Of a stretch of DNA of 64,000 nt, positions 1 to 40,345 are shown in pieces. The notes under the pieces are model-generated. The model did not search any database. It worked only from the letters and a program-made list of their open reading frames with translations, and had not been told where the DNA came from. The first letter of the stretch is position 1. Each line of letters begins with the position of its first letter. The translations under genes and the position numbers were made by a program. Location: NCBI GenBank assembly GCA_038153405.1, contig JAYOYH010000010.1:1-64000 (forward strand). The letters are read 5' to 3'. The stretch is from Gemmatimonadota bacterium. Lineage in GTDB: Bacteria > Latescibacterota > UBA2968 > UBA8231.

Positions 1-777
1 CATCAGGCCTTCGACCAGCGTCGTCTCACCGCCCAATACCAAGCGGCTATCCGGCTCGTCGCCCGATACGTCGCGGCGCACATACTGCACCGATACCAGC
101 GAAGAAGGGTTCAGTTGGTAGGCCACACCCACGTGCACGTCCATCGGCAGCTTGCCCGCATCCGAATCGCCCTGCACGCTGCCATAGGCCACGTTCGGCT
201 GGTTCAGATTCTTCAGCAGCAGACCAAACTGCGCGCCCTTCAGCGGGCTCTTCCACATCAGGCCCAAATCGACACCTACATTGCCCGCGCTCTGATTCGA
301 CAGCGGATCGGCCCGACCGTTATCGGCGGGGATATCGCCCACGCTCCAGAACAGATATTTCGCGTTCAGACCGAGGTTAAACGACTTGCCCAACTTGTAG
401 GCCAGCGAAAGGAAGGCGCCGTTTTCGCTCATCAGATCGGAGCCGATGCGCTCGTAGCCCAGCCCCAAGCCCAGTTTCGAACCCAGCGGCATCACATACG
501 ATACGACGTGCTGTCCCAGATCGTCTCCCTCAATGCCGCCGAAAAACAGCGACACATTCGTGTAGGCCAATTGCGCCCCTTCGATCTGGCCCAAGCCGGC
601 CGGATTGGCAAAAACGGCGTCGGCATCGTCGGCGATGGCTACGTAGCTATTGCCCAGCGCCGCCGAGCGCGCGCCGGCGCCCACGTTCTGGATGTTAACG
701 ACGGCGTCGGCGACCTGAGATGACAGGAACACAACGCTGGCTGCCGCCAAAACACTAAAAATCTTCGAAGTTTTCAT
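1..777 (-). CDS. PorV/PorQ-family (FadL-like) outer-membrane beta-barrel, 3' end outside the window
   Basis: Absent from the ORF track. Manual translation from ATG 777 (SD AAGGAGGAG upstream) is open to position 1: MKTSKIFSVLAAASVVFLSSQVADAVVNIQNVGAGARSAALGNSYVAIADDADAVFANPAGLGQIEG..., then amphipathic strands (LSLAYKLGKSFNLGLNAKY, GVDLGLMW, FGLLLKNLNQP, LPMDVHVGVAY). GARxxALG...DxxAxFxNPAGL is the PorV/PorQ-type N-terminal signature. Confidence 0.85.
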   Translation of the reverse strand, partial: MKTSKIFSVLAAASVVFLSSQVADAVVNIQNVGAGARSAALGNSYVAIADDADAVFANPAGLGQIEGAQLAYTNVSLFFGGIEGDDLGQHVVSYVMPLGSKLGLGLGYERIGSDLMSENGAFLSLAYKLGKSFNLGLNAKYLFWSVGDIPADNGRADPLSNQSAGNVGVDLGLMWKSPLKGAQFGLLLKNLNQPNVAYGSVQGDSDAGKLPMDVHVGVAYQLNPSSLVSVQYVRRDVSGDEPDSRLVLGGETTLVEGLM

Positions 778-810
778 CAGCCAACTCCTCCTTGCTGGTG
801 GCTCAAATCT

Positions 811-1551
811 CTAATCGACTTTGCTGAGCTTGATCGTGCCGTCGCTGTAGATGCGGCCGATATCTCGGACAAATTGGTATTCAATATTGGTGGTCTCGAC
901 CGGCTCGTTGCGAAAATCAAAGCGCAACACGACGTCGTGTATTTGCACGTCTATAGAAGCCACGTCGGGATGCAACGCGGGAAATACTACGAAGCCTTCT
1001 GCTTCTTGGCCACTAAAAATTTCTTCGTTCTTTAGCATGGTGCGGCGCAGCAGGTCGCGACGCTCCTGATAGCGGGCGTATTCATTGCCCCTATACCCAA
1101 TGGCATAGGGCCTGTAGTACGTGTCGAGCTGCTCAAAGCTCAAGCTCCAATACTCGCGCTTATTGCTGGCCTTGATAACGATCTTGCTGGGATCAATCTT
1201 GACTTTGGGATAAGCGTAGTTTTTAACGCTCAACTTAAACACGGCAAAGCGCTGCTTCTCTTTGTTCGAACCCCAGAAAACCGAATTGCCAAACGTATAG
1301 GGATTGGTCGACTTGGGGCCAGCCTGCGAGTTGTTGAAAAACTGTCGATTCAGTTCTTCGTCGGTCATGGGCTTCAGGTTCACTTCAAAGCGATCCTGAG
1401 CAAACGTAACCGTGCCATCGTCAGCAACGGTCATAGCGGCAGACTGATCCTCATTGGGACGCAGAGGGCCAGTGTAGTAGTGATAGCCACACCCCGAAAG
1501 CGAAGTGATTGCTATCAGTGCGGCGATAAACAATCTGTGTGATGTGCTCAA
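811..1551 (-). CDS. Lipoprotein of unknown function, paralog of 29570-30334
   Basis: Lipobox LSGC; shares VADDGxV, PMTDEELNRQF, NPYTFGNS, YPKVxxDPxK and IFSxQExEG with the paralog. TTG start. Confidence 0.8.
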   Translation of the reverse strand: MSTSHRLFIAALIAITSLSGCGYHYYTGPLRPNEDQSAAMTVADDGTVTFAQDRFEVNLKPMTDEELNRQFFNNSQAGPKSTNPYTFGNSVFWGSNKEKQRFAVFKLSVKNYAYPKVKIDPSKIVIKASNKREYWSLSFEQLDTYYRPYAIGYRGNEYARYQERRDLLRRTMLKNEEIFSGQEAEGFVVFPALHPDVASIDVQIHDVVLRFDFRNEPVETTNIEYQFVRDIGRIYSDGTIKLSKVD

Positions 1552-1554
1552 GAA

Positions 1555-2496
1555 TCAATTCCCCGCTGTTGTGTGTTTCTTAACTGCGCCCCAGGAGCGC
1601 TGCTCAACGACAGTCGGAACAAAGATACCCTCTAAGGGCATCAGCATCAAATCGGCGAAGCGCTCCGAAAAACGGTAGGAGTTTAACTCGCCAGACAGCG
1701 ACCACTTTGCATCGAGTAAATCCGACTGGATATCAAAGTCGTTAAACTCGACGTTGAAACCGATGATCTCCGATTCCTGCAGCCGGTGCTCAACGCTCAA
1801 GAAGGAAGCGCTGACGTCAATCCGATCAAAGGGAACCAGTGACATCTCGTATCGGACGATGCCCCGTCCGTTCTCCTGCCCTTCGTAAACCACGGCCGCT
1901 TCAGTGTAGGGGCCATCGGCCAGCGCATACCACGCAGCGGCCGAATAGTTGACGAAAAAGTCTTCATCGGGCGGAGGACCAGCCAACACAAAGTGGCTGG
2001 CCTGCGTGCCGTTTACTTTGGCCTGCTCTTCGGGTGACAGTTCCGAAAAGTTGGCGAACTGACCGCCCGAGTGATCCGCATCGACGAATACTTCCAGCGC
2101 ATCGTCCAAAAAGATGCGCGTCGACGCGGTGCCTGCAGGCCGGTCGATCTGGTGTATATCATCGCTCACCTGCGCGGCGATATACAGCCTATTCTGCTCT
2201 TTGCTCCACCCCACGAACAGAGTCGCAGAAAAATCCTCGACATCTGTTTGACTTCCGCCGATCAGGTCGTGCAAATCGTCGGAAGTAATCCGATATGCAT
2301 CCCCGACGAGCCTCCAGTCGTCCAACTGGCCATCGACGGCGGGCTCAAAACCGGCGGGAAACTGAAACGCCTTGAAAACCTCCCCGCTCGGCGCATGCGC
2401 CCAACTGGGGACAGCTCCTGCAACAAAACAGATCAAAACCGCTGCGCGCACGGTTTTTACAACCGCACAGCACGCGCCGTAGTACTTTTCAAGCAT
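1555..2496 (-). CDS. Secreted CBM9/DOMON-like sugar-binding protein with C-terminal WGxxK tail
   Basis: Signal peptide ending SWA-H; VDGQLDDW, GWSKEQNRLYIAAQVSDD, DALEVFVDAD, IIGFNVEFNDFD resemble CBM9/DOMON-like domains; tail PTVVEQRSWGAVKK. Paralog of 39174-40079. Confidence 0.7.
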   Translation of the reverse strand: MLEKYYGACCAVVKTVRAAVLICFVAGAVPSWAHAPSGEVFKAFQFPAGFEPAVDGQLDDWRLVGDAYRITSDDLHDLIGGSQTDVEDFSATLFVGWSKEQNRLYIAAQVSDDIHQIDRPAGTASTRIFLDDALEVFVDADHSGGQFANFSELSPEEQAKVNGTQASHFVLAGPPPDEDFFVNYSAAAWYALADGPYTEAAVVYEGQENGRGIVRYEMSLVPFDRIDVSASFLSVEHRLQESEIIGFNVEFNDFDIQSDLLDAKWSLSGELNSYRFSERFADLMLMPLEGIFVPTVVEQRSWGAVKKHTTAGN

Positions 2497-2507
2497 TATT
2501 GCGCTGT

Positions 2508-2686: not shown

Positions 2687-5320
2687 CTACTCAACGCCGG
2701 CGTATACGGCGACAAAACTGCGCGTCCGCGTCTCGACCTCGTCGAATTCAAACTGGCGGCGGGCCAGTTCGAACCCTATAGTCGTCGTCAACTTGTATCC
2801 CTGGTACTCCGATAAATTGCTCAACTGCACCGTATTTACCAACCCGTGGAAGCTGTCTTCGCCTCCCGGCGGCGTGGGATCGAGCAGTTGGCTGAATATT
2901 TCGTATTCGATGCCCCACTCCACCGAACTGCTGCGCAAAAAGGGAAATCGCACGAGAAACGAGAAAAACTGGTCCCACTCTCGGCGTTTGGGCACGGAGC
3001 GCCTTACGTCGGCCTGATGGCGGTACTCGCTCTTCCAGCGCGGAACCCACGTTGTATTTAGCCAGTTCAGCTTGTATTCGACCTTGTCGATCAGCCCTAA
3101 AAAATAGGCGCGTTCGCGCTGGTCGCGCAGGGCCAACTCTATGGCATCATCCTGCTGCAGGTACAGTTGCCACTTCAGTTTATTTTCCCACCGCAACCCG
3201 CGAATGCGCGTGAAGTCAAAGCCCACCCAGGTGGTGTTGATCCACGTATCCTGCGCGGCAAGTGGGTCGGTTATAAGGCGCATGCCACCGCGCGTGTTGG
3301 CCGGCTGCTGCCACTGGAAAAGATCGTCCGCTATTGTGTCTTTAACTCGTCTGATATCCTGAAAGAGCACCCACTGCCCCCAGCCGAACAGATCGACGTT
3401 GGCCGCGCCGATTAGATACGTCGCCCGATTTTTGCGCTTCGCCGAGATCTGCCGCAGGCGCTGCTGTCCGACGGTAACTCGGATATCGGGGCTAAGGTGA
3501 AATCCGCCATAGGCATTATAGCCCTTGAAATCGGGCTTGTAGGGCAGGTCGGCCTGTTCGTCGTTTTCGAATCGATCGATCCAACCGTTGTGGTTCATAT
3601 CCACGCCGTAGAGAAATTCGGGACGATCGGCGTGAAAGCGCAGGAACGGCTCTTCGTAATCGGGTATGAGGTTGGGGCTGTCTTCGTTGTCGTTCTGATT
3701 GAAGTCCGAAATAAAGTCGTTGTTTTCATCCCAGCCCGGAAAGACTTCGCGGTCACCGGCCTCCCACCCCTTGCGGCGCCAATCGGGCTGGCGATCTTGG
3801 TCATCGTTGTCTTCGACGAATTCAAAGCGCAGAAAGTCGTTATCGAAATCGACCTGGCCGTTATTCCGGTCGACTACATACATATGCGTGGCGTAGCGCG
3901 GGCTAGTATCGAAAGCCTCGCCAAAAAAGAAGAACGGATACCGCGTGCGGGAAACGTTGAGCAACCAGGCCAGCGCCTCGTCTTCAGCCACCGCGTGGCG
4001 GTCGAGGCCGGGATTGGGATATTGGCGAAACTGGCGGTTCACGTTGACTTCCATATAGCTGCGGAAACCGGCCAGATCGTCGACCTCCAGCGTGAAACCA
4101 GCAATTTGGTTGGCGGTGGGAATACCGTAGTCAAAAGCGATGACGCGCTGGTTAGAATTGTCTTTTACATTGCCTGCAGCGCGTGCCAGAGGCAAGAAGG
4201 TTCCCTGCTGATCGGAGGCAATTTCAATGCGGTAGTCGTTGGCGATAACCAATTCGATACTCACGCGTTCGATAGCGGCGATATCGGGGCCTATATAGGT
4301 GCGATCGTTGAAGTCGTAGCTAATGTCAATAATCTCGCTGCCATCGGCTGCCAAGTAGCCGCGGCGCTGAAAGCCACCTTCGATCAAGGGGCGAAAACCG
4401 ATTTCGCTCCCCCGCGTCTGCTTGCCGTCCAGGTCGTAGATGAGAATATCGGTGGCAAAGAGCGCGCCGCCGCCCGTGCCGTCTTCTGGAGAATCGTCGC
4501 TTATGCGCACGTCGATGCGCGAAATGCTGGCAAAGTTCTGCGGTCCGGTGAGCGCGCCTTTGAACATATCGCCGCCAAACGATTCGAGCTGCGTGTAGGC
4601 CTGGTGCGCGTTGACAAAAGTGCCGCCGACCTTGGCAAAGTCGCCCATCTGCACTTCTATGCGACCGCCTATCAAATTGGTATTGTCCGTTTGTTGGCTC
4701 GGATTGGCGCCCGAGATGCCGGGCTCGCTTATGCGCGACATAATCAGCGTACCGGCGTATTTATCGGACATAAAGTCCCACTGCAGGCCATCGAAGAGTG
4801 GCTTGGAAAACGTCATCGGCGTAAGCGACGAGCGAATCTGGCTGCCGATGGTGATGGCATAGTGATACTGGCCCTTGTGGTCGGAAGCGATGACGAGATT
4901 GGAAAACCACGAGCTAAAGCGCCCAGACTTTTCGACCATCGAACCAAAGGGCTGGGGATTTTCCTGACGCCAATCGTAGATGAGCCAGCCGTGCATCAGG
5001 TAATTGCCGTATATGTCGTAGAAGTAGTCGCCTTCAAGCGCCGTCGAAACATAGCGCTGGTATAGCTGGTTGGCGTAGTTGGTATACTCGCGTGAATTCC
5101 ACCCGTACTCGGCGTAGAGTTCCTGCGGAACGTACCACTTGCGCACGACCGGATCGAGCGCATCAAAGAGAATGCCCGGACCCGTGGGCTCAAACGAGAC
5201 TTTGCCCCCGCGCTTCACCGTGCCGAGTCGAGCGCCGTATTCCTGTGCACTGGCACCTGCGCTACACAAAACGGCCAGCAGCAGCACGGCTCTGATTACC
5301 CTTTCTAACATATTCACCAA
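2687..5320 (-). CDS. Large exported protein, putative outer-membrane beta-barrel with Asp-rich Ca-binding loops (copy 1 of 3)
   Basis: Signal peptide ASA-Q; family motifs KWYVPQEL, LTPMTFSKP, DDSPEDG, DNDDQDRQPDW, PDYEEPFLRF, DMNHNGWIDRFEND; amphipathic strands at the C-terminus ending FVAVYAGVE. Start could be 5320, 5317 or 5311. Confidence 0.7.
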   Translation of the reverse strand: MVNMLERVIRAVLLLAVLCSAGASAQEYGARLGTVKRGGKVSFEPTGPGILFDALDPVVRKWYVPQELYAEYGWNSREYTNYANQLYQRYVSTALEGDYFYDIYGNYLMHGWLIYDWRQENPQPFGSMVEKSGRFSSWFSNLVIASDHKGQYHYAITIGSQIRSSLTPMTFSKPLFDGLQWDFMSDKYAGTLIMSRISEPGISGANPSQQTDNTNLIGGRIEVQMGDFAKVGGTFVNAHQAYTQLESFGGDMFKGALTGPQNFASISRIDVRISDDSPEDGTGGGALFATDILIYDLDGKQTRGSEIGFRPLIEGGFQRRGYLAADGSEIIDISYDFNDRTYIGPDIAAIERVSIELVIANDYRIEIASDQQGTFLPLARAAGNVKDNSNQRVIAFDYGIPTANQIAGFTLEVDDLAGFRSYMEVNVNRQFRQYPNPGLDRHAVAEDEALAWLLNVSRTRYPFFFFGEAFDTSPRYATHMYVVDRNNGQVDFDNDFLRFEFVEDNDDQDRQPDWRRKGWEAGDREVFPGWDENNDFISDFNQNDNEDSPNLIPDYEEPFLRFHADRPEFLYGVDMNHNGWIDRFENDEQADLPYKPDFKGYNAYGGFHLSPDIRVTVGQQRLRQISAKRKNRATYLIGAANVDLFGWGQWVLFQDIRRVKDTIADDLFQWQQPANTRGGMRLITDPLAAQDTWINTTWVGFDFTRIRGLRWENKLKWQLYLQQDDAIELALRDQRERAYFLGLIDKVEYKLNWLNTTWVPRWKSEYRHQADVRRSVPKRREWDQFFSFLVRFPFLRSSSVEWGIEYEIFSQLLDPTPPGGEDSFHGLVNTVQLSNLSEYQGYKLTTTIGFELARRQFEFDEVETRTRSFVAVYAGVE

Positions 5321-5334: not shown

Positions 5335-7260
5335 TTAGTAGGCTATGGCTATAGTGCCCGTATGAACTTCTTCAAAGGCGTCGGCGCGTATGCGCATGAC
5401 CCAGATATAGGAACCGGGCACTAGGCCCTTGCCATCTGCCCCACGGCCATCCCAGCGCTTTTCGACCGGACCGATGCGGTGTTCATCGGAAAATACCGTA
5501 TGCACTTTGCGCCCGGCCAAATCGTAGATCTCCAGCACTACGGGGGTTGGCAGCGTTAGCTGCAGCAAGTTGAAAAAAATGTCGAGCTCGTCGTTGACGC
5601 CGTCGCCGTTGGGCGTCAACACTCGAGTGGAAAAGAGGATTTGGCCGACGAGCTTTCCAACCTGCGCTTGGGGAATGGCCACCGCTAAGCTAGCCAATTC
5701 GTCGCTGTCCTCAGGGCCAAACGATACGGCGTTGCCCGCTTCGAGGATCTGCGGCACGGACGGCCAGCGACTGTTGTAGGCGCGCCCAGAAAAGGTCGAG
5801 CCAAAGCGAAAAATAGGCAGATCAAATGTGAACTCCAGCAGATCGCCGTCGCCGTCGATCAGGGGAAAGGACAGCACGAAGCGATCCTCGTTATTGGCCA
5901 CGACGTCGAAGTCGACCGCTTCGCCATTGATGCGCAGGTTGCGAATGGCCGACACCTCGATATTGGTGTCGACTTCCAACCGATCGTAACCGCGCACGCT
6001 GCCGTTGGCCTTGAGCAGCACGGCGTAGTTAAAGCTAGCCGCTTTTTCGGCTTCGGCCAGACGCGGAAACACCTCCGCGCGCAGGGTGTCGGCGATGGGA
6101 GGCTGCAGGTAGTCAAACTGCAGGCGGGCCACCTGCCGCGCATCGAATATGCGGCCGTTGAAGTCGAAGCGGAACTGCACGTAGCGCCGCGGACCCGGTG
6201 CCGTAATTAGCTGGCCATTCTCGGCCGACTTCCACGGGCTCCAATGCTCTTCGTCCTCTATGAGCGGCCCTCTGTTGAGGCGATCCAGCTGGTAGTAGTC
6301 CGCTCCGGGTACTTCAATTACAAAGGGATCGCCGAACTCGCCCACCCCCTTGCGCTGGTAGACGACGGGGGTGTCGTCTAGACCGGTGCGAACTCGCACG
6401 CCGAGTGCGGAAAAGGCTGCCTCACCGACGGATTCCTCGATCCAGCGCACCCGACCAATCGTCGCCCGATCGCCCAGATCGATTAGATCGGTGAGGTAGC
6501 GCGCTTCGCTCAAATAACCCGTGCCATAGACCTCGACTTCATCGATCTCAAACGGCGTCGAAGACAGCGAGCGCACCTTGATAAGGCGCACGTACTGCGG
6601 TGGAACGTTCACGTCTACAATGGGCGACTCATTTTTTTCGTCGCGTGCGACCAATTCGTCGGGGGCATTCTGCGCCGTATTGGTCTGGCGATCGTTAATC
6701 CACACCTCGTATCCGCGCATAAAGTAGTCCTGGAACGGTGCGTTGGGCGTGGGCACCACCGTATTGCGCGGATAGAAGCGCACGCGGTGAATGCCCACCG
6801 GCATGCCAAAATCGAGGATAACTAAAATTCCGCGCGCATTGGCCTCTGGATTGGACAGCGTTGGCTTGCGCTCAAAGGCCACGTTGTGATCGCCGTTGAC
6901 CGTTCCCTCTAGCTGCAAGCGGCGCACCGCGCTGGAAATCAGCAACGAGTTGGGTGCCGTAATGCTGCCGCGGTCCAGCAAGACGCGCGATGCGATATTT
7001 TCCTCCAGTTCAAAAAAGCGCGGGCTAATCCATCCGGGGCGCTGCAGAAAGTCGATAGCATCTTCGGGCGTGTTAGTCGTATCCACTCGGCCGATAGCCG
7101 AGTCGCGCACGAGAATCTCCGGATCGATGCTACCGCCCCCTTCGCTCCAAGGCCGACCGCCCAAGCCAAGAGTAAACGTGCGCACGGACTGGCCGCTGGC
7201 CGGCGATATGCCCAGCGCCGCGCCGACGAGGATCAGTAGGATAAGCCGCTGCCATCGCAT
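5335..7260 (-). CDS. Secreted discoidin/galactose-binding-like protein with FlgD-Ig/CHU_C-like C-terminal domain
   Basis: Signal peptide; LDFGMPVGIHRVRFYPR, EIDEVEVYGTGY, WSPW...PGPRRYVQFR; C-terminus TPNGDGVND...IYDLAGR...WDGRG...PGSY...IAIAY. Confidence 0.75.
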   Translation of the reverse strand: MRWQRLILLILVGAALGISPASGQSVRTFTLGLGGRPWSEGGGSIDPEILVRDSAIGRVDTTNTPEDAIDFLQRPGWISPRFFELEENIASRVLLDRGSITAPNSLLISSAVRRLQLEGTVNGDHNVAFERKPTLSNPEANARGILVILDFGMPVGIHRVRFYPRNTVVPTPNAPFQDYFMRGYEVWINDRQTNTAQNAPDELVARDEKNESPIVDVNVPPQYVRLIKVRSLSSTPFEIDEVEVYGTGYLSEARYLTDLIDLGDRATIGRVRWIEESVGEAAFSALGVRVRTGLDDTPVVYQRKGVGEFGDPFVIEVPGADYYQLDRLNRGPLIEDEEHWSPWKSAENGQLITAPGPRRYVQFRFDFNGRIFDARQVARLQFDYLQPPIADTLRAEVFPRLAEAEKAASFNYAVLLKANGSVRGYDRLEVDTNIEVSAIRNLRINGEAVDFDVVANNEDRFVLSFPLIDGDGDLLEFTFDLPIFRFGSTFSGRAYNSRWPSVPQILEAGNAVSFGPEDSDELASLAVAIPQAQVGKLVGQILFSTRVLTPNGDGVNDELDIFFNLLQLTLPTPVVLEIYDLAGRKVHTVFSDEHRIGPVEKRWDGRGADGKGLVPGSYIWVMRIRADAFEEVHTGTIAIAY

Positions 7261-22501: not shown

Positions 22502-24013
22502 GTGTCTAGGGCGACGTATATACTCGTTGCAGTCCTGCTCTGGGCCTGCACTGATCCACCGGCAGACAGCGTATCGCCTTCTGCGCAGCGATTATTCGAA
22601 CAGGGCCTCGAAGCCTCGGCGCAGCAGCGCCACCGAGAAGCACTCGACTTTTTTCAGTCAGCGCGCCGAGATGCTCCCGCTCTTGCGCACTTAGCGCACT
22701 TCGAAAGCGGCAATATCTACGCGCAGCTGGGACAGGCCAACCTAGCGGCCGAGCAATATGAGCAGGCCCTAGGAGCCGAACCCAACCACGCCGAAAGCAG
22801 GCATAACTTAGCCGTGCTGCGCGCCGATCAGGGCCGCCTTCCCGAGGCCATCGCCCTATTAGAGCAACTGCCCGACTACGTACCCGCGCTCAGCACACTC
22901 GCCCTCTTTTACGCCAAACAGGCGCAGTACGACCGGGCGACGACCGCGCTCCAACGGGCTCTAGCGCTCGCACCACAGTCCTCTCAGCTCAACCGCCAAT
23001 TGGGCTCACTGCTCATGCAGCAAGGCCTGTTTGCAGCGGCCGATGACCAATTGGGCAAGGCCTGGGCCCTCGATTCAACCGACGCTGAAACGGCGCGTAT
23101 CATGGGGCAGCTCAGCGTGCGCATGGACCGCCCTCAGCGCGCAATCGACTTTTTTCACCGCGCCCTTAACGCCCGCCCGCTACACGCCGAAACGCAGTAC
23201 AATATGGCGACGGCGCTGGCCCAGTTCGGCCGGCGCGACGAAGCACAGACCTATATGCAGCGCTTTGAAGAGCTCGCCCAGCGCAGCGCCGAGATTGCCC
23301 AACTGCGGCGGTCACTCGATGATGCTCCAGACGATATCGCCCTCCACCTGGCATTGGCGCACCACTACGCTGCCCTTCAGCAGCCGAACCGCGCCCGCGA
23401 CTACTACCGCGCCGTTCTTCTGATCGACTCGCTGCACTTAGAAACCCTTGTGCGTCTTTCGAGCCTATTACTGCGACAGGGCGAGCGGTCCGAAAGCCTA
23501 GCGCTGTGTCAGCGCGGCATCGAAGCGCATGGAGACGGTCCAGAAACGAGCCCTCTGCACTTTACCACTGGCTACATCCACTACTTGGAAAAGCGTTACC
23601 CTGAGGCTGAAACGGCCTTTTCGCGCTCGCTTTCACTCGACGCCCAGCAAGCCGAAGCGTGGAACAATCTCGGCAACGTACAGCAGCTACGAGGCGACAT
23701 CGCAGCGGCACAGAGCTCGTTTACAAAAGCCATTGCCGCCGATTCCCTGTTAATTGATGGGCACTTTAATCTGGCCATCACCTATCAACGCCAGAAGGCC
23801 TGGCTCTCGGCCCACCGATCTTTTAGCAGGGCTCTGGAGATTAACCCTCGCTATGCACAGGCCTATTACGGCTTGGCCACCGTCTGTGAAGCAATGGACT
23901 CCACCGCCGCGGCTCTGCGCGCCTATCGCAAGTTTCTCGACTACAACCCAGTCGATGCAGCGTGGCGCGCACGCGCTCAACAGCGCCTAGCACAGCTCGA
24001 GTCCCAGCTCTAA
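22502..24013 (+). CDS. TPR-repeat lipoprotein
   Basis: GTG start, lipobox LWAC, TPR units (SRHNLA, AWNNLG, ALEINP). Confidence 0.85.
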   Translation: MSRATYILVAVLLWACTDPPADSVSPSAQRLFEQGLEASAQQRHREALDFFQSARRDAPALAHLAHFESGNIYAQLGQANLAAEQYEQALGAEPNHAESRHNLAVLRADQGRLPEAIALLEQLPDYVPALSTLALFYAKQAQYDRATTALQRALALAPQSSQLNRQLGSLLMQQGLFAAADDQLGKAWALDSTDAETARIMGQLSVRMDRPQRAIDFFHRALNARPLHAETQYNMATALAQFGRRDEAQTYMQRFEELAQRSAEIAQLRRSLDDAPDDIALHLALAHHYAALQQPNRARDYYRAVLLIDSLHLETLVRLSSLLLRQGERSESLALCQRGIEAHGDGPETSPLHFTTGYIHYLEKRYPEAETAFSRSLSLDAQQAEAWNNLGNVQQLRGDIAAAQSSFTKAIAADSLLIDGHFNLAITYQRQKAWLSAHRSFSRALEINPRYAQAYYGLATVCEAMDSTAAALRAYRKFLDYNPVDAAWRARAQQRLAQLESQL

Positions 24014-29569: not shown

Positions 29570-30334
29570 TCAGGGGCTGGTATTGGCTACTCTGCGCCCG
29601 TCGGGATATACCCGCCCAATTTCGCGCTGAAAGAGCATCTCCACGTCGGTGGTCTCTACCGGGTCGCCTTTGTAGTCAAAGCGCACGACAATATCGTCAA
29701 TGTGCACCGTCAATAGGTCGACATCGCTAGCCAACGGTTCAAATACGATATAGCCCTCGCTCTCCTGGGCAGAAAAAATCTGCTCGTCTTGATACATCGT
29801 CCTGCGCAGAATGCCATCGCGTTCCTTCCAGACAATAAACGAATTGCCGGGTATGCCCGGCGAATCGCCTCCACTGCCGCCACCGGCGTAGCGGCGATAG
29901 TAAATGGATAGCTGGTCTCTGGTCAACGCATAGTATTTGCGGCCGTTTGACGTCGTGATATACACCTTCTGCGGATCGAGGTAGACCTTGGGATACTCGT
30001 AATTGGACACGTTGAGGCGAAAAATCGTCCACCGTTTGGGCGTATCCCCGGTGTCAAAATACTCCGAGTTGCCAAAGGTATACGGGTTGCGGGACTCGGC
30101 CCCGTCGTTGGAATAAGCGCTGAACTGGCGATTGAGTTCTTCGTCAGTCATCGGCCGCAGGGTGATGGCCAGGCGCGCCTGGTTATAGGTAACGCTGCCA
30201 TCGTCGGCAACTTCTTTGTCCTCGCCCTGCTCCGCTTCGCTCAGCGGCTGCAAATCATCTGCATAGTATCGATATGAACAACCCGTCCATCCGACGGCTG
30301 CGGCGAAGAAGAGCAGGTAACAGATTTTCAACAT
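29570..30334 (-). CDS. Lipoprotein of unknown function, paralog of 811-1551
   Basis: Lipobox WTGC, SD GGAG; PMTDEELNRQF, NPYTFGNS, VxRFDY/F and IGRV/IY shared with the paralog. Confidence 0.8.
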   Translation of the reverse strand: MLKICYLLFFAAAVGWTGCSYRYYADDLQPLSEAEQGEDKEVADDGSVTYNQARLAITLRPMTDEELNRQFSAYSNDGAESRNPYTFGNSEYFDTGDTPKRWTIFRLNVSNYEYPKVYLDPQKVYITTSNGRKYYALTRDQLSIYYRRYAGGGSGGDSPGIPGNSFIVWKERDGILRRTMYQDEQIFSAQESEGYIVFEPLASDVDLLTVHIDDIVVRFDYKGDPVETTDVEMLFQREIGRVYPDGRRVANTSP

Positions 30335-33159: not shown

Positions 33160-36100
33160 TCAATATGCCACATTGACAATGCGCATCAGCTCGCTGTCGC
33201 CCTGATCGGCTTCAACGATGATGCGGCAAATATACATACCCGGAGGCACCAACGCCCCCGACGCGTCGAGCCCGTTCCAGCGGAACTCCTGCGCACCAAC
33301 CATCCCGGCCATACCGCTTCCCTGTCCGCGCCCCACCAAGCGCCCACTAAGGTCGAATATCTCCACACCTAGCGGACGCTCTTCCAACACTTTGAGCAGG
33401 GCGAAACGCACGACGAGTTCGTCGTTTATGCCATCGCCGTTCGGCGTAAATACAGCCGCCATATCAACGTCTTGAATGAGCGCATCACTCAGCGCCATTA
33501 GGCTGACGCGAGCCGTTGAGGATTCGACCAGTTCGGTAGCATCCTTTGACGACGTATCAACGCGCTGAAAAACGCCCTCTTCGCCGTTGGACGAACGGAC
33601 GAAACTGCCAAACTCAATGCCTTCGCGGAAGCTCTGGGATTCAAACTGCACCTCGACAATGGCATGGCGTCCTCCCAACAAGTTTCCATTCACCGATTCG
33701 GGGAAGCGCACCCATAGCGAGTCGCTGCGCGTAGCCATAACCATGAGCGCCTCGCCCGCCTCGTTGCGAAAGGTGCCGTCGGCATCCCGACCATAAAACC
33801 GCGTGAAATCGGTCTGTACGGCAGTCGTCAGGGAGGCCGTAGGATCGATGAGAGAGGCCTGTTCAGATACGGATACCGTTCCGACCCGCACGCCTTTCAA
33901 CTCGGCAGCGAGTGGAGTGACGATAAGAACTTCATTGAAGCCATCGCGCACCGTCACGTCAGCCGGATCCGGTGCAGCCGCTCGAATAAAGTACGAGAAG
34001 CTCTGCTGCGAAAGGGGATCAACGCCCGTAGGCGCCACGTAATCGACGGGAAGCGAAAGGAGCTCCGTCACGGGACGGCCCTTACCCTCGTCCGTAAGCA
34101 GCGCTAGTTCGCCCGCTAGTTCTAACGACAGGGGCGGCGCCAAATCGACGCGCAGTTCGCGAACGCGGGCCGTCTTGAACGGTTCTTCGGAGGAAATATT
34201 AACGCGAATCTGCAAAAACTTGCGCGGGTTAGGCGAGGTTATCGTCGCCTCGTTGCGCCCGTTGGTCGGCGCATACGACTCGCTCCACTCGCTCCAGCCG
34301 ACAAAGGCCAGTTCGCCTTCGCTGTCGTAGGAAGAGCGCGGCTCGCGGCGGAGTTTCTTTCCGTCTTCGTCTACCAATCCATCGCCGTCGTTGTCGATCA
34401 GGTCGATGGGATCTTCATCCGTCACGCCATCGCCGTCGTCGTCGACGCGACTCTCGTGCCGTTTGTTGTCTGGCAAGGTCTGCCAGATATTCCATGCGGT
34501 CCACTCCAGCACCAGCGCATCGTAGACTTCCTTTGCAACCTCCTGCCGCTCTTGGGCTCCGGCAATTTCGACCACTTCGTAGTAGGTGAAGTTGGTATCG
34601 GTTTGATCGGACGTGCGCGTTTGCACCTGCAGGCGCACGTCGGGATGGTTCTCCAACGGCTCAATCCGCTCGACGGTTTGCCCGGTAACCGGGTCGGTGT
34701 CGCGAATAATCACATCGCCTCCCCAGGCAATCTGCGGCAGCGTTTTGCGAATAAACTCCCCGCGCGCATCCGTCAGGGAGATCGGCGGCGAATAGGCCCA
34801 AACGCTAACGGGATACCCCTCCCCATAGAGTTGGATCTCGCCGAGGGTTGCCAGCGAACCATAGCGTCCCGACTGCTGCCCGGTCACGTCGATATCGCGC
34901 ACCTGCAAAAAGCGGATTTTGCGCGGGGAAAACGTCTCGCGGAATATGCGCACGACTTGGTCGTGATTGTCCACGTGCTCGGCAGAAATAATGTTGTCCC
35001 ACTTAAGCCCCTCTTCCAACTGGGGAAAATCGTCGCGCTGTTGCATGCTGAGCGGCTTGAGCAGCGTGCCGTCTGACACCAAGATATCCGGGCCTAGGAA
35101 AGCGCCTAAATGGCTCTGGTTGATGCGCTTGTTAACCACGGAGACGTTATCCACCCAGAATACGGCACCCAAATCGTACCAGGCCGTTCCCTTAAGATAG
35201 ATCGGAGACCACGTATTGGCCTGCCATTCGGAGTCGTAGAGCCCATCCGTGGCCAACTCGGGGGCTCCAAGGCCACCATTTTCATAGGAGGCGCCACCGC
35301 GCTTTTCCGGCTGCAGGGCGTAATTATCGCCCTTGGCCCACACCTGCACTTCGGAAATGCGCGGCACTTCACGGCTGTAATAGAGTATGGGACCGCGCTT
35401 GTCCTCCGACAGGGCTTCAAACTTAGCGCGAGCATTCAGGCCGTTTTCGTCGTCCTGCAGCTCCACGAGCAGGCCGCCCGCCGTCAGGCGCTGAAAGACC
35501 AGTGCACCTCTCTGTTCCGAGGGAAGTGCCTCGTACACCACCCGGCCCTCTTCCCCAGCCCCGAGGAACGCATCGCGCCACAAATCGGAATCGGTGACCT
35601 TAATGCGGATATACTGCAGAAACGTGCCGTCTATATCGGGCAGTCCATCCAAATCCCAGTCGGCGCGATCTAGCGGGCGGAGGGGAAAGGTCATCTGCAC
35701 GTAGCGCCCGTCCGTGCCCGGCGTGGGGCGGAGCACGAGTTCGTTAACCTCTTCTCCTCCACCGCCCGAACACGAGGTGCCTCCGGCATAGCCTGCCGAC
35801 TCATCGCGCACGCATTGAGCGATTTTTCCGGCGGCAAAGTTGGTCGCAACCTGTCCGACGAGCGAGAAGTTCAGGCTGTTACCCAGTGGAAAGGGAAAGC
35901 GCTCGCCCATGGACGCAAAAACGGCAAATGATTTCAGTGGTTCACCGAGAAATTCTTCTCCTACCTGGCCAGCCGGAAAAATAACCGTGACGCTGTCGAC
36001 GTAAACCAAACGCCCTAGGTCGATTTCCAATTCCCACTTGCGCAACCCATCGACGGAAAACTCGTGCGTTTCGTCGAGGCGACGCTCGTAGTTGGAAGCA

Positions 36101-36501
36101 ACGGAGGGTTCCCAGTAGGTCTCGAGATTGTCGTCAAGGATAGCTAAGGACCGGGTGTTATTGGATAAACTGCTGGCCCCACCGCTGACCACATCGCCGC
36201 CAGCGCGCACCAAATCCTTATAGCTAAAGTTGGCTGCCGTAGGGCCGATGTTGATATTGCGCCGATAAAAGACCGGACGCATCCCCTCCGCATCGACCTG
36301 AAAGATGTCGGCGTCGGTAATGGGCACGTTAAGCGAACCGACGAGGTCGTTTTGATAGCTCCAATTGAGCCAATGCGAAGCCCTATCGACTCGAATCGAG
36401 TTGCCAAATAGCCTGTAGGCGTCACCGACCTGAGACAGTGCAGGGACTGCCAACAGGACTCCTAGCAACACAGCGTGGCACACAGTCATCCGATTTTTCA
36501 T
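33160..36501 (-). CDS. Secreted two-discoidin-domain protein with acidic insert and FlgD-Ig/CHU_C-like C-terminal domain
   Basis: Signal peptide; ILDDNLETYWEP...IDLGRLV, second YDLGAVFWVD unit; two DxDGDGxxDED repeats; FTPNGDGIND...IVNVAY. Confidence 0.75.
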   Translation of the reverse strand: MKNRMTVCHAVLLGVLLAVPALSQVGDAYRLFGNSIRVDRASHWLNWSYQNDLVGSLNVPITDADIFQVDAEGMRPVFYRRNINIGPTAANFSYKDLVRAGGDVVSGGASSLSNNTRSLAILDDNLETYWEPSVASNYERRLDETHEFSVDGLRKWELEIDLGRLVYVDSVTVIFPAGQVGEEFLGEPLKSFAVFASMGERFPFPLGNSLNFSLVGQVATNFAAGKIAQCVRDESAGYAGGTSCSGGGGEEVNELVLRPTPGTDGRYVQMTFPLRPLDRADWDLDGLPDIDGTFLQYIRIKVTDSDLWRDAFLGAGEEGRVVYEALPSEQRGALVFQRLTAGGLLVELQDDENGLNARAKFEALSEDKRGPILYYSREVPRISEVQVWAKGDNYALQPEKRGGASYENGGLGAPELATDGLYDSEWQANTWSPIYLKGTAWYDLGAVFWVDNVSVVNKRINQSHLGAFLGPDILVSDGTLLKPLSMQQRDDFPQLEEGLKWDNIISAEHVDNHDQVVRIFRETFSPRKIRFLQVRDIDVTGQQSGRYGSLATLGEIQLYGEGYPVSVWAYSPPISLTDARGEFIRKTLPQIAWGGDVIIRDTDPVTGQTVERIEPLENHPDVRLQVQTRTSDQTDTNFTYYEVVEIAGAQERQEVAKEVYDALVLEWTAWNIWQTLPDNKRHESRVDDDGDGVTDEDPIDLIDNDGDGLVDEDGKKLRREPRSSYDSEGELAFVGWSEWSESYAPTNGRNEATITSPNPRKFLQIRVNISSEEPFKTARVRELRVDLAPPLSLELAGELALLTDEGKGRPVTELLSLPVDYVAPTGVDPLSQQSFSYFIRAAAPDPADVTVRDGFNEVLIVTPLAAELKGVRVGTVSVSEQASLIDPTASLTTAVQTDFTRFYGRDADGTFRNEAGEALMVMATRSDSLWVRFPESVNGNLLGGRHAIVEVQFESQSFREGIEFGSFVRSSNGEEGVFQRVDTSSKDATELVESSTARVSLMALSDALIQDVDMAAVFTPNGDGINDELVVRFALLKVLEERPLGVEIFDLSGRLVGRGQGSGMAGMVGAQEFRWNGLDASGALVPPGMYICRIIVEADQGDSELMRIVNVAY

Positions 36502-36558: not shown

Positions 36559-39009
36559 TTAATAGGCGACGGAAATGAGTTTCGTTCTCGCCTCGCCCGC
36601 ATCGTCCGCTTCCGTCGACAGCCGCAATATGTATAGTCCTGGCGGCACCAGGCTGCCCATGTCGTCCCTTCCATCCCACTGTTCTGAATAGCCACCTGAG
36701 TTCAGCAAGCGCTCGATGAGGCGCAGGCGGTTCCCATTCAGATCGTATACCGCAAGCAGGACCGCGCGGGGCTCTAACAAGCGCTGGACGTCAAAGCGGA
36801 CCTCTAACAGATCGTTGACCCCGTCGCCGTTCGGTGTAAAAGGGTTGGGAGTCGTTTCGAAGTTCGCAACTAAATTGCTCCCCTGCGCCGAGATATCGGC
36901 GATAACCGCAAGCGAGTTGCGGTCGGAAAGCTGCTCTGTAGCATCAAAATCGATGACATCGCTGCCCTCGACCGGCTGCGGCAGAAAGAGAGCCAAGGTG
37001 TCGGCAGCTGCGCCCAACGTGAGGATTCCGTTATTGGTAAAGCGGCGATCGAAGCTCGATGCCAGCGTATCCAAGAACACGTTGGCCGCGAAGTTGGTGC
37101 GGAAGTCAATCACGCGCGCGCGGAAGTTGACTTTCACAACCGCCTCCCGATCCAGCCCATCGTCACCGGGGGCAATCGTCGGAAATCCGATCACAAATTG
37201 CTCGTCATCAACGAATAGCGCGCTGAACTGATCATCATCGAAATCGGGGTTTTCGCTGGCAGACAACATGCGCACATCGCCGGCACCCATATCGATTGAC
37301 ACAGATTGAATGTTTTCGACGCGGGCAGGCGTGAAGACCTGCAGCCGATTGAAACCGTTGTTATTCGCTCCCAGGGACGCTCTAATCGCAATGGCGAAGG
37401 TCGTGTCTATACCAGCCTTGACGTCGACCGCGGGAGCGATCTCGCCGACCACGGCGTCGGTGATCTGCGGCGCCGAGTATTCAAAGCGCAGGTTGCGCAC
37501 AATCGTCGCCGACTCCGATGATAAACTTCTGAACTCAACATCGATCTGAATAAAGGGCCTACCACTCGGCGAGTTGATGAGCTGGCCATTGGTCACCTGC
37601 TGCACGCCGCTCCAGTACTCGAGATCCGGCTCAATTTTCCTGCGCAAGTTGCCGGGCAGCGCCTGATATTCGGCGCGCGTCAGACGAACGGATTCGCGCT
37701 CGTCGGGCAGCAGCGCGCTGAATATTTCGCGAACTTCTAGGTTGAACTGTGGGTCGTTCAAGTCGATCTGCTCGCCGCGCGTCTTCGATCCGGCGCGACG
37801 GTCCACTACAATAGCGTTTTCCGGCTTCCACTCGACCTGACGCTCGAATTCGTTGACGCGAAACAGCACATCCGGCTCGGCATTAACACCCGTCTGAATG
37901 CGCACGATGGCACTCGACTTGGTCGGGTCACCGACCTTATCCTCTTCCCAAAAAATGCGACCAAGGGTCGACGGCGGCAGCGGCAAGGCGATAGAGCGAT
38001 AGGTCGCCTGCGGCACAAAGCCGTCGGCAAAGAATTCCATCTCGCCCAAATCATAGTCGAGTTCGGTCTGAAAGTCCATGCGCGCGTAGCGCATTTTGGC
38101 GGGCGGATCGAACGCCACCGCCACTGTGTCCTCGACGTTAACGGGCGCACTCTGCTCGGGAACAAAAGTGGGAAACGTCGGGGCAATTTTGGTGAATATG
38201 GGAAAGGCCAACTGACCGACGGTCGGATCGTCCAAGCTCAAGCCGGCAATGACTTTTTCCGTGCCGGCAATACCCCGATAGAACGTGTAGGCAGAAATGC
38301 GAACGGGCGCCTCCGGACTGGGATATACCCGCATGAGGCGAATGGGAAAAAAGCGTCCGAGGTCGACATACAGCGTCCAGACCTGCTTGACGTCCTGCCC
38401 AACGCGGTCGATGCGCTCAAAGTGGGTAAGCGGATCGCCGTCAAATACGCGGCCCAATCCCTCTTGGAGCCGCTGTAAGGTCAGCGCACGCTCAAAAATA
38501 CCCAGTGTCGTGAGATTGAGACCCTTATTGTATTTGTCTCCTCCCGGCGGGCGCGGAAACGACTCCGCTACGTTAATCAGCGCAGCGACCGTATCCACGC
38601 CGGCTAGGCGCAGCATCTGCACGTCTTCCAGCGACCGAGGAAAGTCACCCCAGCGCGAAATGAGCACATCACCAGCGGCCACGGAGCGATCGCCGAGGGT
38701 GGCATCCAGCTGCGCTACGACTTCGGATCGGGCAACGTGTTGCGAAAATTCAAATAGAATGGAGTCAGCACCAGCGCTGCCCTCCTCAACCTGCGGGACA
38801 GGCACCATTTGCACCGGCTCGATCGGCGCAATCCCGTCGGGAACGCGTAGGAGATCGACGGCTTCGAGATAGCGCTGCTCGGAGATAGGTCCCTGTTTGG
38901 CATCAACCCAGGAGATATCTTGCGGAATGGAAAAGATCTTGAGTTCGGCAGGGCTTTCGCCCACCAGGCCCGCCAGCACTGCTACGGCGATACGCTTTGA
39001 CCATCTCAT
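36559..39009 (-). CDS. Secreted discoidin-like protein with FlgD-Ig/CHU_C-like C-terminal domain
   Basis: Start reassigned to ATG 39009 (MRWSKRIAVAVLAGL...). VFDGDPLTHF, VDLGRFFPIRLMRVYP, SPSGRPFIQ; PNPFTPNGDGVND...WDGRD...ISVAY. Confidence 0.75.
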   Translation of the reverse strand: MRWSKRIAVAVLAGLVGESPAELKIFSIPQDISWVDAKQGPISEQRYLEAVDLLRVPDGIAPIEPVQMVPVPQVEEGSAGADSILFEFSQHVARSEVVAQLDATLGDRSVAAGDVLISRWGDFPRSLEDVQMLRLAGVDTVAALINVAESFPRPPGGDKYNKGLNLTTLGIFERALTLQRLQEGLGRVFDGDPLTHFERIDRVGQDVKQVWTLYVDLGRFFPIRLMRVYPSPEAPVRISAYTFYRGIAGTEKVIAGLSLDDPTVGQLAFPIFTKIAPTFPTFVPEQSAPVNVEDTVAVAFDPPAKMRYARMDFQTELDYDLGEMEFFADGFVPQATYRSIALPLPPSTLGRIFWEEDKVGDPTKSSAIVRIQTGVNAEPDVLFRVNEFERQVEWKPENAIVVDRRAGSKTRGEQIDLNDPQFNLEVREIFSALLPDERESVRLTRAEYQALPGNLRRKIEPDLEYWSGVQQVTNGQLINSPSGRPFIQIDVEFRSLSSESATIVRNLRFEYSAPQITDAVVGEIAPAVDVKAGIDTTFAIAIRASLGANNNGFNRLQVFTPARVENIQSVSIDMGAGDVRMLSASENPDFDDDQFSALFVDDEQFVIGFPTIAPGDDGLDREAVVKVNFRARVIDFRTNFAANVFLDTLASSFDRRFTNNGILTLGAAADTLALFLPQPVEGSDVIDFDATEQLSDRNSLAVIADISAQGSNLVANFETTPNPFTPNGDGVNDLLEVRFDVQRLLEPRAVLLAVYDLNGNRLRLIERLLNSGGYSEQWDGRDDMGSLVPPGLYILRLSTEADDAGEARTKLISVAY

Positions 39010-39100: not shown

Positions 39101-39144
39101 AAAAACAGCGTTGAAGAGAGGGGGTTGCCCCCCTCTCTTCAACG
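39101..39144 (-). terminator. Strong intrinsic terminator after 39174-40079
   Basis: Perfect 16-bp stem CGTTGAAGAGAGGGGG (39109-39124) / CCCCCTCTCTTCAACG (39129-39144), 4-nt loop, followed on the minus strand by CUGUUUUU. Confidence 0.85.
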
Positions 39145-39173
39145 GGATATCACAGCGCATTGCAGCGCTTAAA

Positions 39174-40079
39174 TTACTCGACCGAGGCCTTGATACGACC
39201 CCAAGAATCGCTCTCAACAGCCGTGCCACCACCACCGGCACCGACCAAGCGACCATCGACGAAACGCTCAGCGTAACGCCAGGTAGCGGCCTGACCGGAC
39301 AGGGTGTGGAACGCGCGGTAGTTGGAGGGCTCGATGTCGAAGTCAGGCACCGAAACCTGGAAGCCAATGATGCCACCGTCGACCAGGTTCGTGGCCTGGC
39401 TATCATCGGGGCTGTTCCAGATCAGGTCGTCAAACGGCGTGACGTAGAACTCGAAGATCGAGGTCGTCGGACCCTCGCCAACCGAGCCACCGCCGCCATC
39501 GGCATAGGGCAGCGCGTTGACCCACTCGGCACCGGCGCCCTGATAACCGACGTGGCGGCCATCGGGGGTGTCGGCAATAGCGACATACTGCTGAGCGGTG
39601 CGGTTGTTGTTCAACAGCTTCTCGTCGTCGGTCCAGTTCTCGTCAGCCGAACCCGTGTAGTCACCACCGGTGTGGTCGCCGTCGAGCATGAACTCGATAG
39701 CGTCGTGACGCCAGAGCTGACCGAGGTCGCCACCAGCATACTCGTTGATGTACACGTTATCAACGCGCTCCATGGCCATGTAGATGGTGCTGGAGTTGCC
39801 GTTCCAGCCTACCCAAATGCGGTAGTCGAGGTCGGCCGGATCATACTGGGCACCTTCGCCCACGGTCGGATCCTGGTAGAAATCAGTCGTGACGAGCGGA
39901 GCATCGCCAACGACGTCTTCCCAGTCAGCAACGCTGATATCGCGAATATCGATATCAGACAAATCCGAATCGGGAATTTCGTAGATCAGGTAAACAGATT
40001 CGCCTATGTGGGCGCTTGCGGTACCGCTCATGCCGCCAACGAGGCCGGCAACGATCAGAGAGAGTAGAGACTTTCTCAT
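39174..40079 (-). CDS. Secreted CBM9/DOMON-like protein with C-terminal WGxxK tail
   Basis: Start reassigned to ATG 40079 (SD GGAAGGAG; MRKSLLSLIVAGL...ASA-H). VGWNGNSSTIYMAMERVD, DAIEFMLDGDHTGG, IIGFQVSVPDFD; tail GGGGTAVESDSWGRIKASVE. Confidence 0.75.
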   Translation of the reverse strand: MRKSLLSLIVAGLVGGMSGTASAHIGESVYLIYEIPDSDLSDIDIRDISVADWEDVVGDAPLVTTDFYQDPTVGEGAQYDPADLDYRIWVGWNGNSSTIYMAMERVDNVYINEYAGGDLGQLWRHDAIEFMLDGDHTGGDYTGSADENWTDDEKLLNNNRTAQQYVAIADTPDGRHVGYQGAGAEWVNALPYADGGGGSVGEGPTTSIFEFYVTPFDDLIWNSPDDSQATNLVDGGIIGFQVSVPDFDIEPSNYRAFHTLSGQAATWRYAERFVDGRLVGAGGGGTAVESDSWGRIKASVE

Positions 40080-40310
40080 TTGTTTGGACTCCTTCCAAAA
40101 GATCTTTTGAATCACACTGTACTCATACGTAAAGAAGGCTTCTGCGGCATCGATATGACACCGCATGAAAACTGAAAATACCGAAGCATTTTCAGGAAAA
40201 TTTCAGTTCGCCATCACCTCCTTTCGCCGTGGAATGCGCAGAAAACAAAATGCGACCATCGCCCTTCTCTAAAGAGAGAACGCGATGGGAATGCGTTAGA
40301 TAAAAAATTT
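40080..40310 (-). promoter_or_regulatory. Long structured 5' leader with three hairpins and an orphan perfect Shine-Dalgarno
   Basis: Hairpins at 40256-40288, 40172-40195 (cUUCGg loop then UUUU) and 40143-40165; AAAGGAGGUGAU at 40224-40213. Confidence 0.6.
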
Positions 40311-40316
40311 CACCTT

Positions 40317-40345
40317 ATGATATGTTAAAGTACAGCAGGTGTCAA
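40317..40345 (-). promoter_or_regulatory. Sigma70-type promoter TTGACA-N17-TATCAT
   Basis: Minus strand TTGACA (40345-40340), 17-nt spacer, TATCAT (40322-40317). Confidence 0.75.

Follow-up and report, generated by a model that had tools for sequence, protein, structure and literature searches.

Two paralogous cassettes in a 64-kb window

We analyzed a 64,000-nucleotide stretch of DNA (hereafter the window; contig JAYOYH010000010.1, positions 1 to 64,000, assembly GCA_038153405.1) from a bacterium deposited as Gemmatimonadota and placed by GTDB in the Latescibacterota. It encodes a putative cell-surface system whose main parts are large outer-membrane beta-barrels, discoidin surface proteins with a C-terminal TPNGDG tail, a conserved lipoprotein and a CBM9-like protein. 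A preliminary description of this DNA had noted these four families in two minus-strand cassettes, and open reading frame (ORF) mapping, translations and alignments of the 64-kb window located every one of them where it had been placed (Table 1). Cassette 1 is transcribed in the order class I discoidin gene, class II discoidin gene, barrel, class I discoidin gene, barrel, CBM9-like gene, lipoprotein and PorV-like gene, and is truncated by the contig end inside the last of these. Cassette 2 (minus strand, 40079 down to 27785) reads CBM9-like gene, class I and class II discoidin genes, barrel, lipoprotein and peptidyl-prolyl isomerase (PPIase) gene. The PorV/PorQ-like and PPIase lipoprotein genes into which the two cassettes had been described to continue are both real. 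Intergenic gaps are mostly shorter than 65 bases, with four of 114-274.

Between the cassettes lies a plus-strand block, which opens with a further TPNGDG protein and continues with tetratricopeptide repeat (TPR) and FG-GAP/ASPIC genes (Pfam). The [TS]PNGDG domain therefore forms the C-terminal end of six window proteins, five on the minus strand and one on the plus strand, in line with the five copies plus one divergent copy described before; the divergent gene keeps the same position in genome G002 (handles beginning with G, C and L denote our genomes, contigs and loci). Window DNA was found in estuary, seawater and marine metagenomes. Contigs from four RNA runs (three studies) overlap parts of positions 1-17300, but they cannot rank the genes and are no proof of transcription.

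Table 1. Features of the window that belong to the two cassettes and the block between them (HMM, hidden Markov model)
Feature	Positions	Strand	Evidence
PorV/PorQ-like small outer-membrane barrel; candidate shared shuttle/anchor for TPNGDG tails	1..774	-	NF033709 72.7 bits, cut-off 90
Conserved ~250-aa lipoprotein, PMTDEELNRQF family, no known family	811..1551	-	Lipobox G-C
Secreted CBM9/DOMON-like protein, C-terminal TAVE..WGxIK motif	1555..2496	-	PF06452 (CBM9_1) 25.5 bits, above cut-off
Large predicted outer-membrane beta-barrel, undescribed family, modelled copy	2687..5311	-	AlphaFold2, Foldseek, strand amphipathicity
Class I discoidin surface protein, modelled copy, TPNGDG tail	5335..7260	-	AlphaFold2, profile matches, CHU_C
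Second large barrel of cassette 1	7264..9933	-	38-39% identical to 2687-5311; family HMM
Class II (longer) discoidin surface protein, TPNGDG tail	9933..12431	-	F5/8 type C above cut-off, FlgD_ig, CHU_C; tree
Class I discoidin surface protein, SPNGDG tail	12431..14305	-	Pfam, tree, translation
Divergently transcribed discoidin-family member, N-terminal Asp-rich repeats, TPNGDG tail	14580..17249	+	Family HMM 342 bits; CHU_C 36.9 bits
Associated block: PMT-type glycosyltransferase-TPR, two FG-GAP/ASPIC-UnbV proteins, two TPR proteins	17290..25747	+	Pfam
Parvulin/PrsA-type PPIase lipoprotein, likely foldase for the system	27785..29455	-	Rotamase (Pfam)
Second conserved lipoprotein copy (PMTDEELNRQF)	29570..30334	-	46% identical to 811-1551
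Large barrel of cassette 2	30345..33098	-	45% identical to 2687-5311
Class II discoidin surface protein, 1113 aa, TPNGDG tail	33160..36501	-	Family HMM, tree, translation
Class I discoidin surface protein, TPNGDG tail	36559..39009	-	Family HMM, tree, translation
Second CBM9-like WGxIK protein	39174..40079	-	Family HMM 297 bits; family alignment

A family of predicted large barrels

The three large proteins, of ~900 aa and mutually 38-45% identical, have no match in Pfam (cut E 0.01, all three) or NCBIfam and no solved relative among PDB sequences (best E 0.053). In the AlphaFold2 model of the copy at 2687-5311 (pLDDT 87.6, pTM 0.85; 85-row alignment), 22 long strands lie between mature residues 127 and 850, every one of them with alternating hydrophobic columns (0.36-0.91); among the strands before residue 127, that at 82-94 is moderately amphipathic (0.39) and those at 102-106 and 117-124 are not. 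On this model, the family is predicted to form outer-membrane barrels of 22 or 24 strands, as the preliminary description had supposed for three genes. Its label "Asp-rich" applies to one loop only (18% Asp at mature residues 470-575, as against 8.0-8.5% in the whole proteins). Besides the barrel, the model contains an N-terminal domain of ~120 residues, an inserted beta-sandwich (218-374) and an Asp-rich insert (448-572), which is the most conserved segment. By strand parity counted from the last strand, both inserts appear to follow outward-pointing strands.

All 50 top Foldseek rows for this model are outer-membrane barrels (SlpA, MtrB, LptD, ushers, TonB-dependent transporters and porins), none of them above a TM-score (TM) of 0.25 on the query; for SlpA, MtrB, LptD and the ushers, rmsd exceeds 18 A and identity is 6-10%. 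ESM Atlas searches with the barrel and the lipoprotein returned matches without common Pfam families in 30 of 30 cases; among named clusters, DUF6029 (0.89) and LssY_C/DUF4352 (0.82/0.79) came nearest and serve as no more than leads. The family comprises 1025 representatives at E <=0.001, and named homologues are labelled mostly Candidatus Latescibacterota and in some cases Gemmatimonadota. A midpoint-rooted tree separates a deep clade, with the copies on contigs C7 and C34, from a satellite clade that includes the window copies; the pattern Y-NY--Y--Y--YD--G--L--G at residues 50-90 is preserved in both. Two other identities were considered and rejected: the barrel is not a fragment of SprA, since its profile similarity to the SprA of this genome is limited to a 15-column motif, and open frames of 1400-1650 aa in relatives are overlapping frames and not cargo-barrel fusions.

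Discoidin surface proteins and their proposed secretion route

The discoidin protein at 5335-7260 was modelled by AlphaFold2 as 618 residues of nearly all beta structure (pLDDT 92.2). From the strand order, the predicted fold is a split beta-sandwich with an inserted discoidin domain, followed by an Ig-like domain and the TPNGDG tail. Profile searches matched an Sm-hPAF lectin domain (E 4e-5) and FlgD, Foldseek gave only generic beta-sandwich rows (TM <=0.21) with no whole-chain solved relative, and no catalytic domain was detected in the discoidin proteins. Two main classes (I and II) are distinguished by the tree, and most loci hold both. On contigs C3, C9, C47 and C52 of the present genome (G000), class I and class II genes are paired without an adjoining barrel, which suggests that the two classes act as a pair.

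The N-termini of the tailed window proteins are signal-like, and their tails score as CHU_C/FlgD_ig, with CHU_C above its cut-off in five of six. Against TIGR04131, the type B model for a type IX secretion system (T9SS), they reach 16-20 bits (cut-off 35). Genome-wide, tails of the form TPNGDG.ND...Y terminate in Tyr in 50 of the 53 discoidin proteins and stand apart from 48 further FlgD-type tails, most of which read YPNPFN...LL[KR]. The search for T9SS core genes proposed in the preliminary description was productive: the genome encodes a 2132-aa SprA_N protein on C29, and PorU and PorV on C91, all above cut-offs. No PorP/SprF model reaches its cut-off in this genome.

Two further observations concern T9SS genes. 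At L028:2800-13059, a ComEA-like helix-hairpin-helix gene comes after sprA on the same strand, and dprA four genes further. A second PorU-like protein of 1858 aa (L004; G000 C48 5701-11277) scores 256 bits against a sortase cut-off of 420.

Genome-wide pairing of barrels and discoidin proteins

Both cassettes are real, but they are not the full extent of the system. This genome (93% complete; counts from iterative profiles, with three weak discoidin rows at E >1e-20 dropped) contains 23 barrels, 53 discoidin proteins, eight lipoproteins and ~10 CBM9-like proteins, and the barrels are spread over 14 loci, two of which lie in the window. A discoidin gene stands directly upstream of 15 of the 22 barrels that have an upstream gene; because discoidin genes make up just 53 of the 4015 called genes, this pairing goes beyond chance. 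The same arrangement was found in other genomes for 30 of 34 satellite-clade barrels.

We further surveyed one draw of 151 genomes of the phylum with a tail-less discoidin profile, a sample in which kin are not independent and which amounts to a handful of events. The barrel was detected in 95 genomes, the discoidin family in 97 and the lipoprotein in 92, and barrel and discoidin occurred together in 94. The only barrel-only genome is 68% complete, and the three discoidin-only genomes each have a single weak match (E ~1e-11). In the organism's own family, all three protein families were present in 63 of 63 genomes; barrel and lipoprotein were found in none of the 51 genomes of three sister families, and the barrel reappears in 31 of 36 genomes from ten more distant families. 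In a set of 69 loci, depositor labels are mostly Latescibacterota or Gemmatimonadota, besides two Handelsmanbacteria, one Zipacnadia, one Planctomycetota and four "uncultured bacterium". The preliminary description had staked itself on three points and survived on each: the families co-occur and a literature search found no described system that they match, the genome has an SprA, and the large protein is predicted to fold as a barrel.

That description had also suggested that the large barrels take the PorP/SprF role. In its fuller form, this explanation makes the barrel a giant PorP/SprF counterpart, the cognate shuttle and anchor of the TPNGDG tail, in a module that displays adhesins or lectins. 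The cargo-then-barrel order recalls type B cargo followed by porP/sprF (PMC12618676). The co-occurrence of barrel and discoidin, the lack of a PorP/SprF model above cut-off and the TPNGDG tails as a class of their own are likewise as expected. However, discoidin genes outnumber barrels 53 to 23: 28 lie within three genes of a barrel and nine within four to eight, whereas 16 are farther away or on contigs without a barrel. Barrels also expand without cargo. Two- or three-barrel tandems with DUF4159 and DUF6785 genes stand at L078, L079 and L081 with no discoidin gene in the fetched flanks, and three family-member genomes (G009, G015 and G100) have 49-85 barrel candidates with only weak discoidin matches. 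The small PorV-like barrel, for its part, directly follows cargo in 33 of 69 deep-clade loci and occurs in cassette 1 as well. In a mirror-tree comparison of 14 pairs, similarity between barrels was better correlated with that of the cargo body (rho 0.29, p 0.017) than with that of the tail (rho 0.14, p 0.098). Moreover, PorP/SprF is 14-stranded (PMC9143113), in contrast to the 22-24 strands predicted here, and a pure anchor leaves the motor genes described below unexplained. The partner role is thus supported by gene order and not supported as it was put forward, and we consider it unlikely.

Motor genes and a putative DUF4159 transducer

In two genomes of the same genus (G003 and G007), cassette 1 continues beyond the point where our contig ends: the PorV-like gene (324 aa at full length in G003) is followed by genes for a 1079-aa TPR protein, ExbB, ExbD and a 452-aa DUF4159 protein. 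In the present genome these motor genes lie on contig C85 and are 85-94% identical. With these ExbB, ExbD, TPR and TonB-like motor genes, which lie beyond the contig end, the system looks energized and not like passive display. C85 ends in the 3' half of a PorV-like gene and overlaps the first 250 bases of the window at 83% nucleotide identity. The PorV-like gene exists as two alleles (window 1-250; C85 14275-14707). In contigs from the RNA runs, differences in this gene cluster at 37-109 and 342-400, hinting at a surface loop that varies in the population.

Two further loci, on C7 and C34, join barrels with TPR and ExbB/ExbD genes, so that three motor loci stand against 23 barrels. Among the 69 deep-clade loci, the barrel is directly followed by the big TPR gene in 62; a lipoprotein gene is present in 60, a discoidin gene in 60 and a DUF4159 gene in 44. 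The DUF4159 proteins are built like TonB: a single helix at the N-terminus leads through a linker rich in Pro, Arg and Lys to a globular end. A [SAG]xxxH motif, of a type described as a motor-binding site (PMC12204202), occurs in the helix of 39 of 48 distinct full-length DUF4159 proteins, compared with 22 of 526 control segments. The true TonB of the genome carries SVVLH, and the order exbB-exbD-DUF4159 parallels exbB-exbD-tonB at C52. TonB_C has two matches in the genome, at C52 and C2, neither of them on the DUF4159 transducer. At two other loci (L067:18473-19504 and L069:15790-16821), 343-aa proteins with ExbD in their C-terminal third stand where ExbB would be expected, and are possibly ExbB-ExbD fusions.

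A motor at the cell surface could also serve movement. In such an explanation, the module would be a force generator of the Agl-Glt/Agl-Nfs kind that moves barrel-bound adhesins for gliding, adhesion or coat building. TPR, TolQ-like and two TolR-like genes recur in the core loci, an arrangement reported in PMC12204202, and the FG-GAP/ASPIC and leucine-rich repeat (LRR) neighbours have adhesion-type folds. The paralogue numbers are very large (at first look, one genome has as many as 346 discoidin candidates, by a measure that gives 119 for the 53 genes here), and the top Foldseek row is the envelope protein SlpA. Yet that match has a TM of 0.20 and no SLH domain was detected, Pfam and NCBIfam scans gave no Glt or Nfs homology beyond generic TPR, one gliding machine has no need of 23 divergent barrels, and several loci are flanked by transporter genes. 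We therefore give this explanation little weight.

Secretion is another job to which the parts could be put, either with the barrels as dedicated export pores or with the Exb-TPR-DUF4159 motor as a substitute for GldLM in T9SS secretion. The PPIase and PorV-like gene recall the SprA-PorV-PPI set, and the Foldseek rows include ushers and LptD, which overlap with the barrel in size. GldM had no match in this genome, but the search was also silent in every control genome and so shows nothing. The profile similarity to SprA is confined to the short motif mentioned above. Of 38 genomes picked by hand, 37 had a match to SprA itself, among them all 14 from families in which barrel and lipoprotein were not found, so the T9SS works without the module in sister families. 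A role in secretion is accordingly quite improbable.

A proposed system for powered capture and import

The explanation that we tentatively favor, at slightly less than an even chance, is that the module is an ExbBD-powered capture-and-import system, SusCD-like in logic and built from unrelated parts, with lectin lids delivered by the T9SS. The gene set, its order, the co-occurrence of the families and the linkage to motor genes in relatives are direct observations; the F5/8 type C domain, the Sm-hPAF match and the CBM9-like neighbour argue for capture of the lectin type. The large barrel would import glycans or other large solutes caught by the discoidin proteins, with power from ExbB/ExbD passed on by the TonB-like DUF4159 protein. 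Sec would take the discoidin proteins across the inner membrane, and SprA, by way of their TPNGDG tail, across the outer one, where the PorV-like barrel would be their shuttle or anchor. Proteins of both classes, I and II, would then sit as lids over their cognate barrel, the body docking on its outer inserts, that is, the beta-sandwich and the Asp-rich loop, which is probably calcium-bound. ExbBD would pull, by means of the DUF4159 transducer and a TPR scaffold of ~1080 aa, on the conserved N-terminal domain of the barrel and so open the barrel. The few motor loci, three in this genome, could serve all 23 barrels, just as one Ton motor does for many SusC paralogues, and the lipoprotein and PPIase may aid assembly or stability of the barrel.

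Several points weigh against this proposal. Motor genes were found at only three of the 14 barrel loci of this genome, and ExbB together with ExbD in just 18 of the 69 deep-clade loci, a count affected by cut flanks and narrow profiles. The join between the window's contig (C10) and C85 is inferred, and their ends are two different alleles at 83% identity. Nine of the 48 DUF4159 proteins lack the helix motif, and the genome also has a canonical TonB and 10 plug-bearing TonB-dependent receptors. No TonB-plug Pfam match was found in the barrels and residues 1-70 of the model are of low confidence, so that any gate is hypothetical. What support the mirror trees give is weak and owes most to operon duplication. 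Neither window cassette has a cluster of glycoside hydrolase or sulfatase genes at its flanks, and near barrels there is no enrichment of PhyH (3/47) or Gfo/Idh/MocA (1/34) genes. Finally, the substrate and the roles in binding and transport are predictions.

A wider form of the import proposal, which we hold somewhat more loosely, is a separate class of proton-powered outer-membrane importers unrelated to TonB-dependent transporters, with a gated barrel, an ExbBD-DUF4159-TPR motor and heterodimeric lectin lids delivered by the T9SS, present in tens of copies per genome as the main nutrient capture of marine and host-associated Latescibacterota. If this is true, an unrelated barrel wired to ExbBD by another transducer would be a second solution to energized outer-membrane import, DUF4159 would gain a role, and the T9SS outside Bacteroidota would be tied to a defined job. 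As the family occurs tens of times per genome in a marine lineage that is both abundant and uncultured, the system likely shapes feeding or attachment. Even if import should fail as an explanation, the barrel, lipoprotein and transducer are uncharacterized and tightly linked families with confident models.

Lipoprotein, CBM9-like and other neighbours

The two PMTDEELNRQF lipoproteins of the preliminary description have a conserved lipobox Cys, and the lipobox G-C is invariant in all eight paralogues of the genome; the family has no Pfam match and no PDB relative (best E 0.16). The two CBM9-like WGxxK proteins were likewise confirmed, the first by CBM9_1 above cut-off and both by the family alignment. 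Within 10 genes of a barrel (background 4.7%; the profiles were seeded from neighbours, so the counts lean high), we found all eight lipoproteins, 7/9 CBM9-like proteins, 8/12 PPIases, 13/21 FG-GAP/ASPIC proteins and 4/5 LRR proteins, as well as neighbours of inner-membrane type (3/6 sugar ATP-binding cassette binding proteins and 5/21 DUF6785). At L043:13472-19323, eight CBM9-like genes or fragments are arrayed beside a discoidin-barrel pair.

A C-terminal [TS]WGx[IVL]K motif is shared by both CBM9-like proteins of the window (1555-2496 and 39174-40079) and the protein at 45564-46046 (minus strand). It is mostly preceded by TAVE, ends 14 proteins of the genome including non-CBM ones, and could be a short sorting signal in its own right. 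Two single-copy genes at 40427-42340 (minus), immediately upstream of cassette 2, encode secreted or lipoprotein-like products of no confident family. The gene at 46027-47064 (minus) encodes a lipoprotein-like product without Pfam match; of its three genome copies, one sits in the motor locus on C34, where the conserved lipoprotein is on one side of it and ExbB on the other. Elsewhere in the window, the gene at 51400-54351 (plus) encodes a FapA flagellar assembly protein of 983 aa in which FapA_N stretches occur four times, and that at 54284-56002 (plus) a single-copy 572-aa protein with a barrel-like C-terminus and an internal thrombospondin-3-like Asp repeat, for which no Pfam match was found.

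Comparison with known systems

To our knowledge, TonB-dependent transporters are almost the only known means of energized import across the outer membrane. In SusCD systems, paralogous barrels are paired with lipoprotein lids, and one Ton motor serves many SusC paralogues. The system described here resembles them in its many paralogous pairs of barrel and surface-binding protein with few ExbBD motors, and possibly in a barrel predicted to have ~22 strands behind an N-terminal domain. As in Ton, the gene after exbB-exbD encodes a transducer that has a single SxxxH helix and a Pro-rich linker (transducer features from PMC12204202). To TonB-dependent transporters, the barrels show neither sequence similarity nor a close structural match (Foldseek TM <=0.27), and they have no PF07715 plug match; the 10 plug matches of the genome are genes other than those of the family, and a non-homologous plug-like domain is possible at residues ~30-124. 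The Ton transducer ends in TonB_C, whereas this one ends in DUF4159; SusD-type lids are lipoproteins, whereas the lids here would be T9SS-type tailed proteins; and the motor locus also encodes a giant TPR protein.

With T9SS type B pairs (SprB-SprF and PG1035-PorP-PorE; PMC12618676, PMC9143113), the system has in common cargo followed by a barrel gene, the CHU_C tail, SprA, PorU and PorV in the genome and a PorV/PorP-like small barrel in the operon. It differs in a tail whose TIGR04131 score stays under the cut-off and whose second half is FlgD-like, in the lack of a PorE-like OmpA protein and in its linkage to ExbBD instead of GldLM. PorP/SprF (TIGR03519) has ~300 aa and 14 strands, in contrast to ~900 aa, 22-24 predicted strands and no NCBIfam match for the large barrel. 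Force transducers ending in vWA domains are also comparable; they occur beside TPR-TolQ-TolR-TolR genes, a role in gliding has been suggested for them (PMC12204202), and they likewise carry a non-TonB C-terminus on a TonB-like helix and linker. The main text of PMC12204202 mentions neither DUF4159 nor Latescibacterota. In the present system, DUF4159 takes the C-terminal place, and genes for outer-membrane partners lie next to it.

Deinococcus SlpA, MtrB, LptD and ushers are large monomeric barrels with inserts, which share architecture only. Envelope tethers such as SlpA and OmpM have an N-terminal S-layer homology (SLH) domain and a coiled coil before the barrel; the present family has no SLH match and, in the model, no long N-terminal helix (TM 0.20-0.21). 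SprA/Sov proteins are 36-stranded, exceed 2000 aa and carry SprA_N, none of which fits the large barrel. In the Myxococcus Agl-Glt/Agl-Nfs machinery, as here, TolQ and two TolR-like subunits are combined with a TPR scaffold, outer-membrane barrels and lipoproteins. The matches are only generic, at the level of TPR and TolQ/TolR, and barrels and surface proteins are massively paralogous in the present case. The literature search, from whose reach most subscription papers lay outside, found no description of this system. Its parts fall outside TonB-dependent transporters, PorP/SprF, SprA and SlpA, while the system likely works in much the same way as Ton/Sus.

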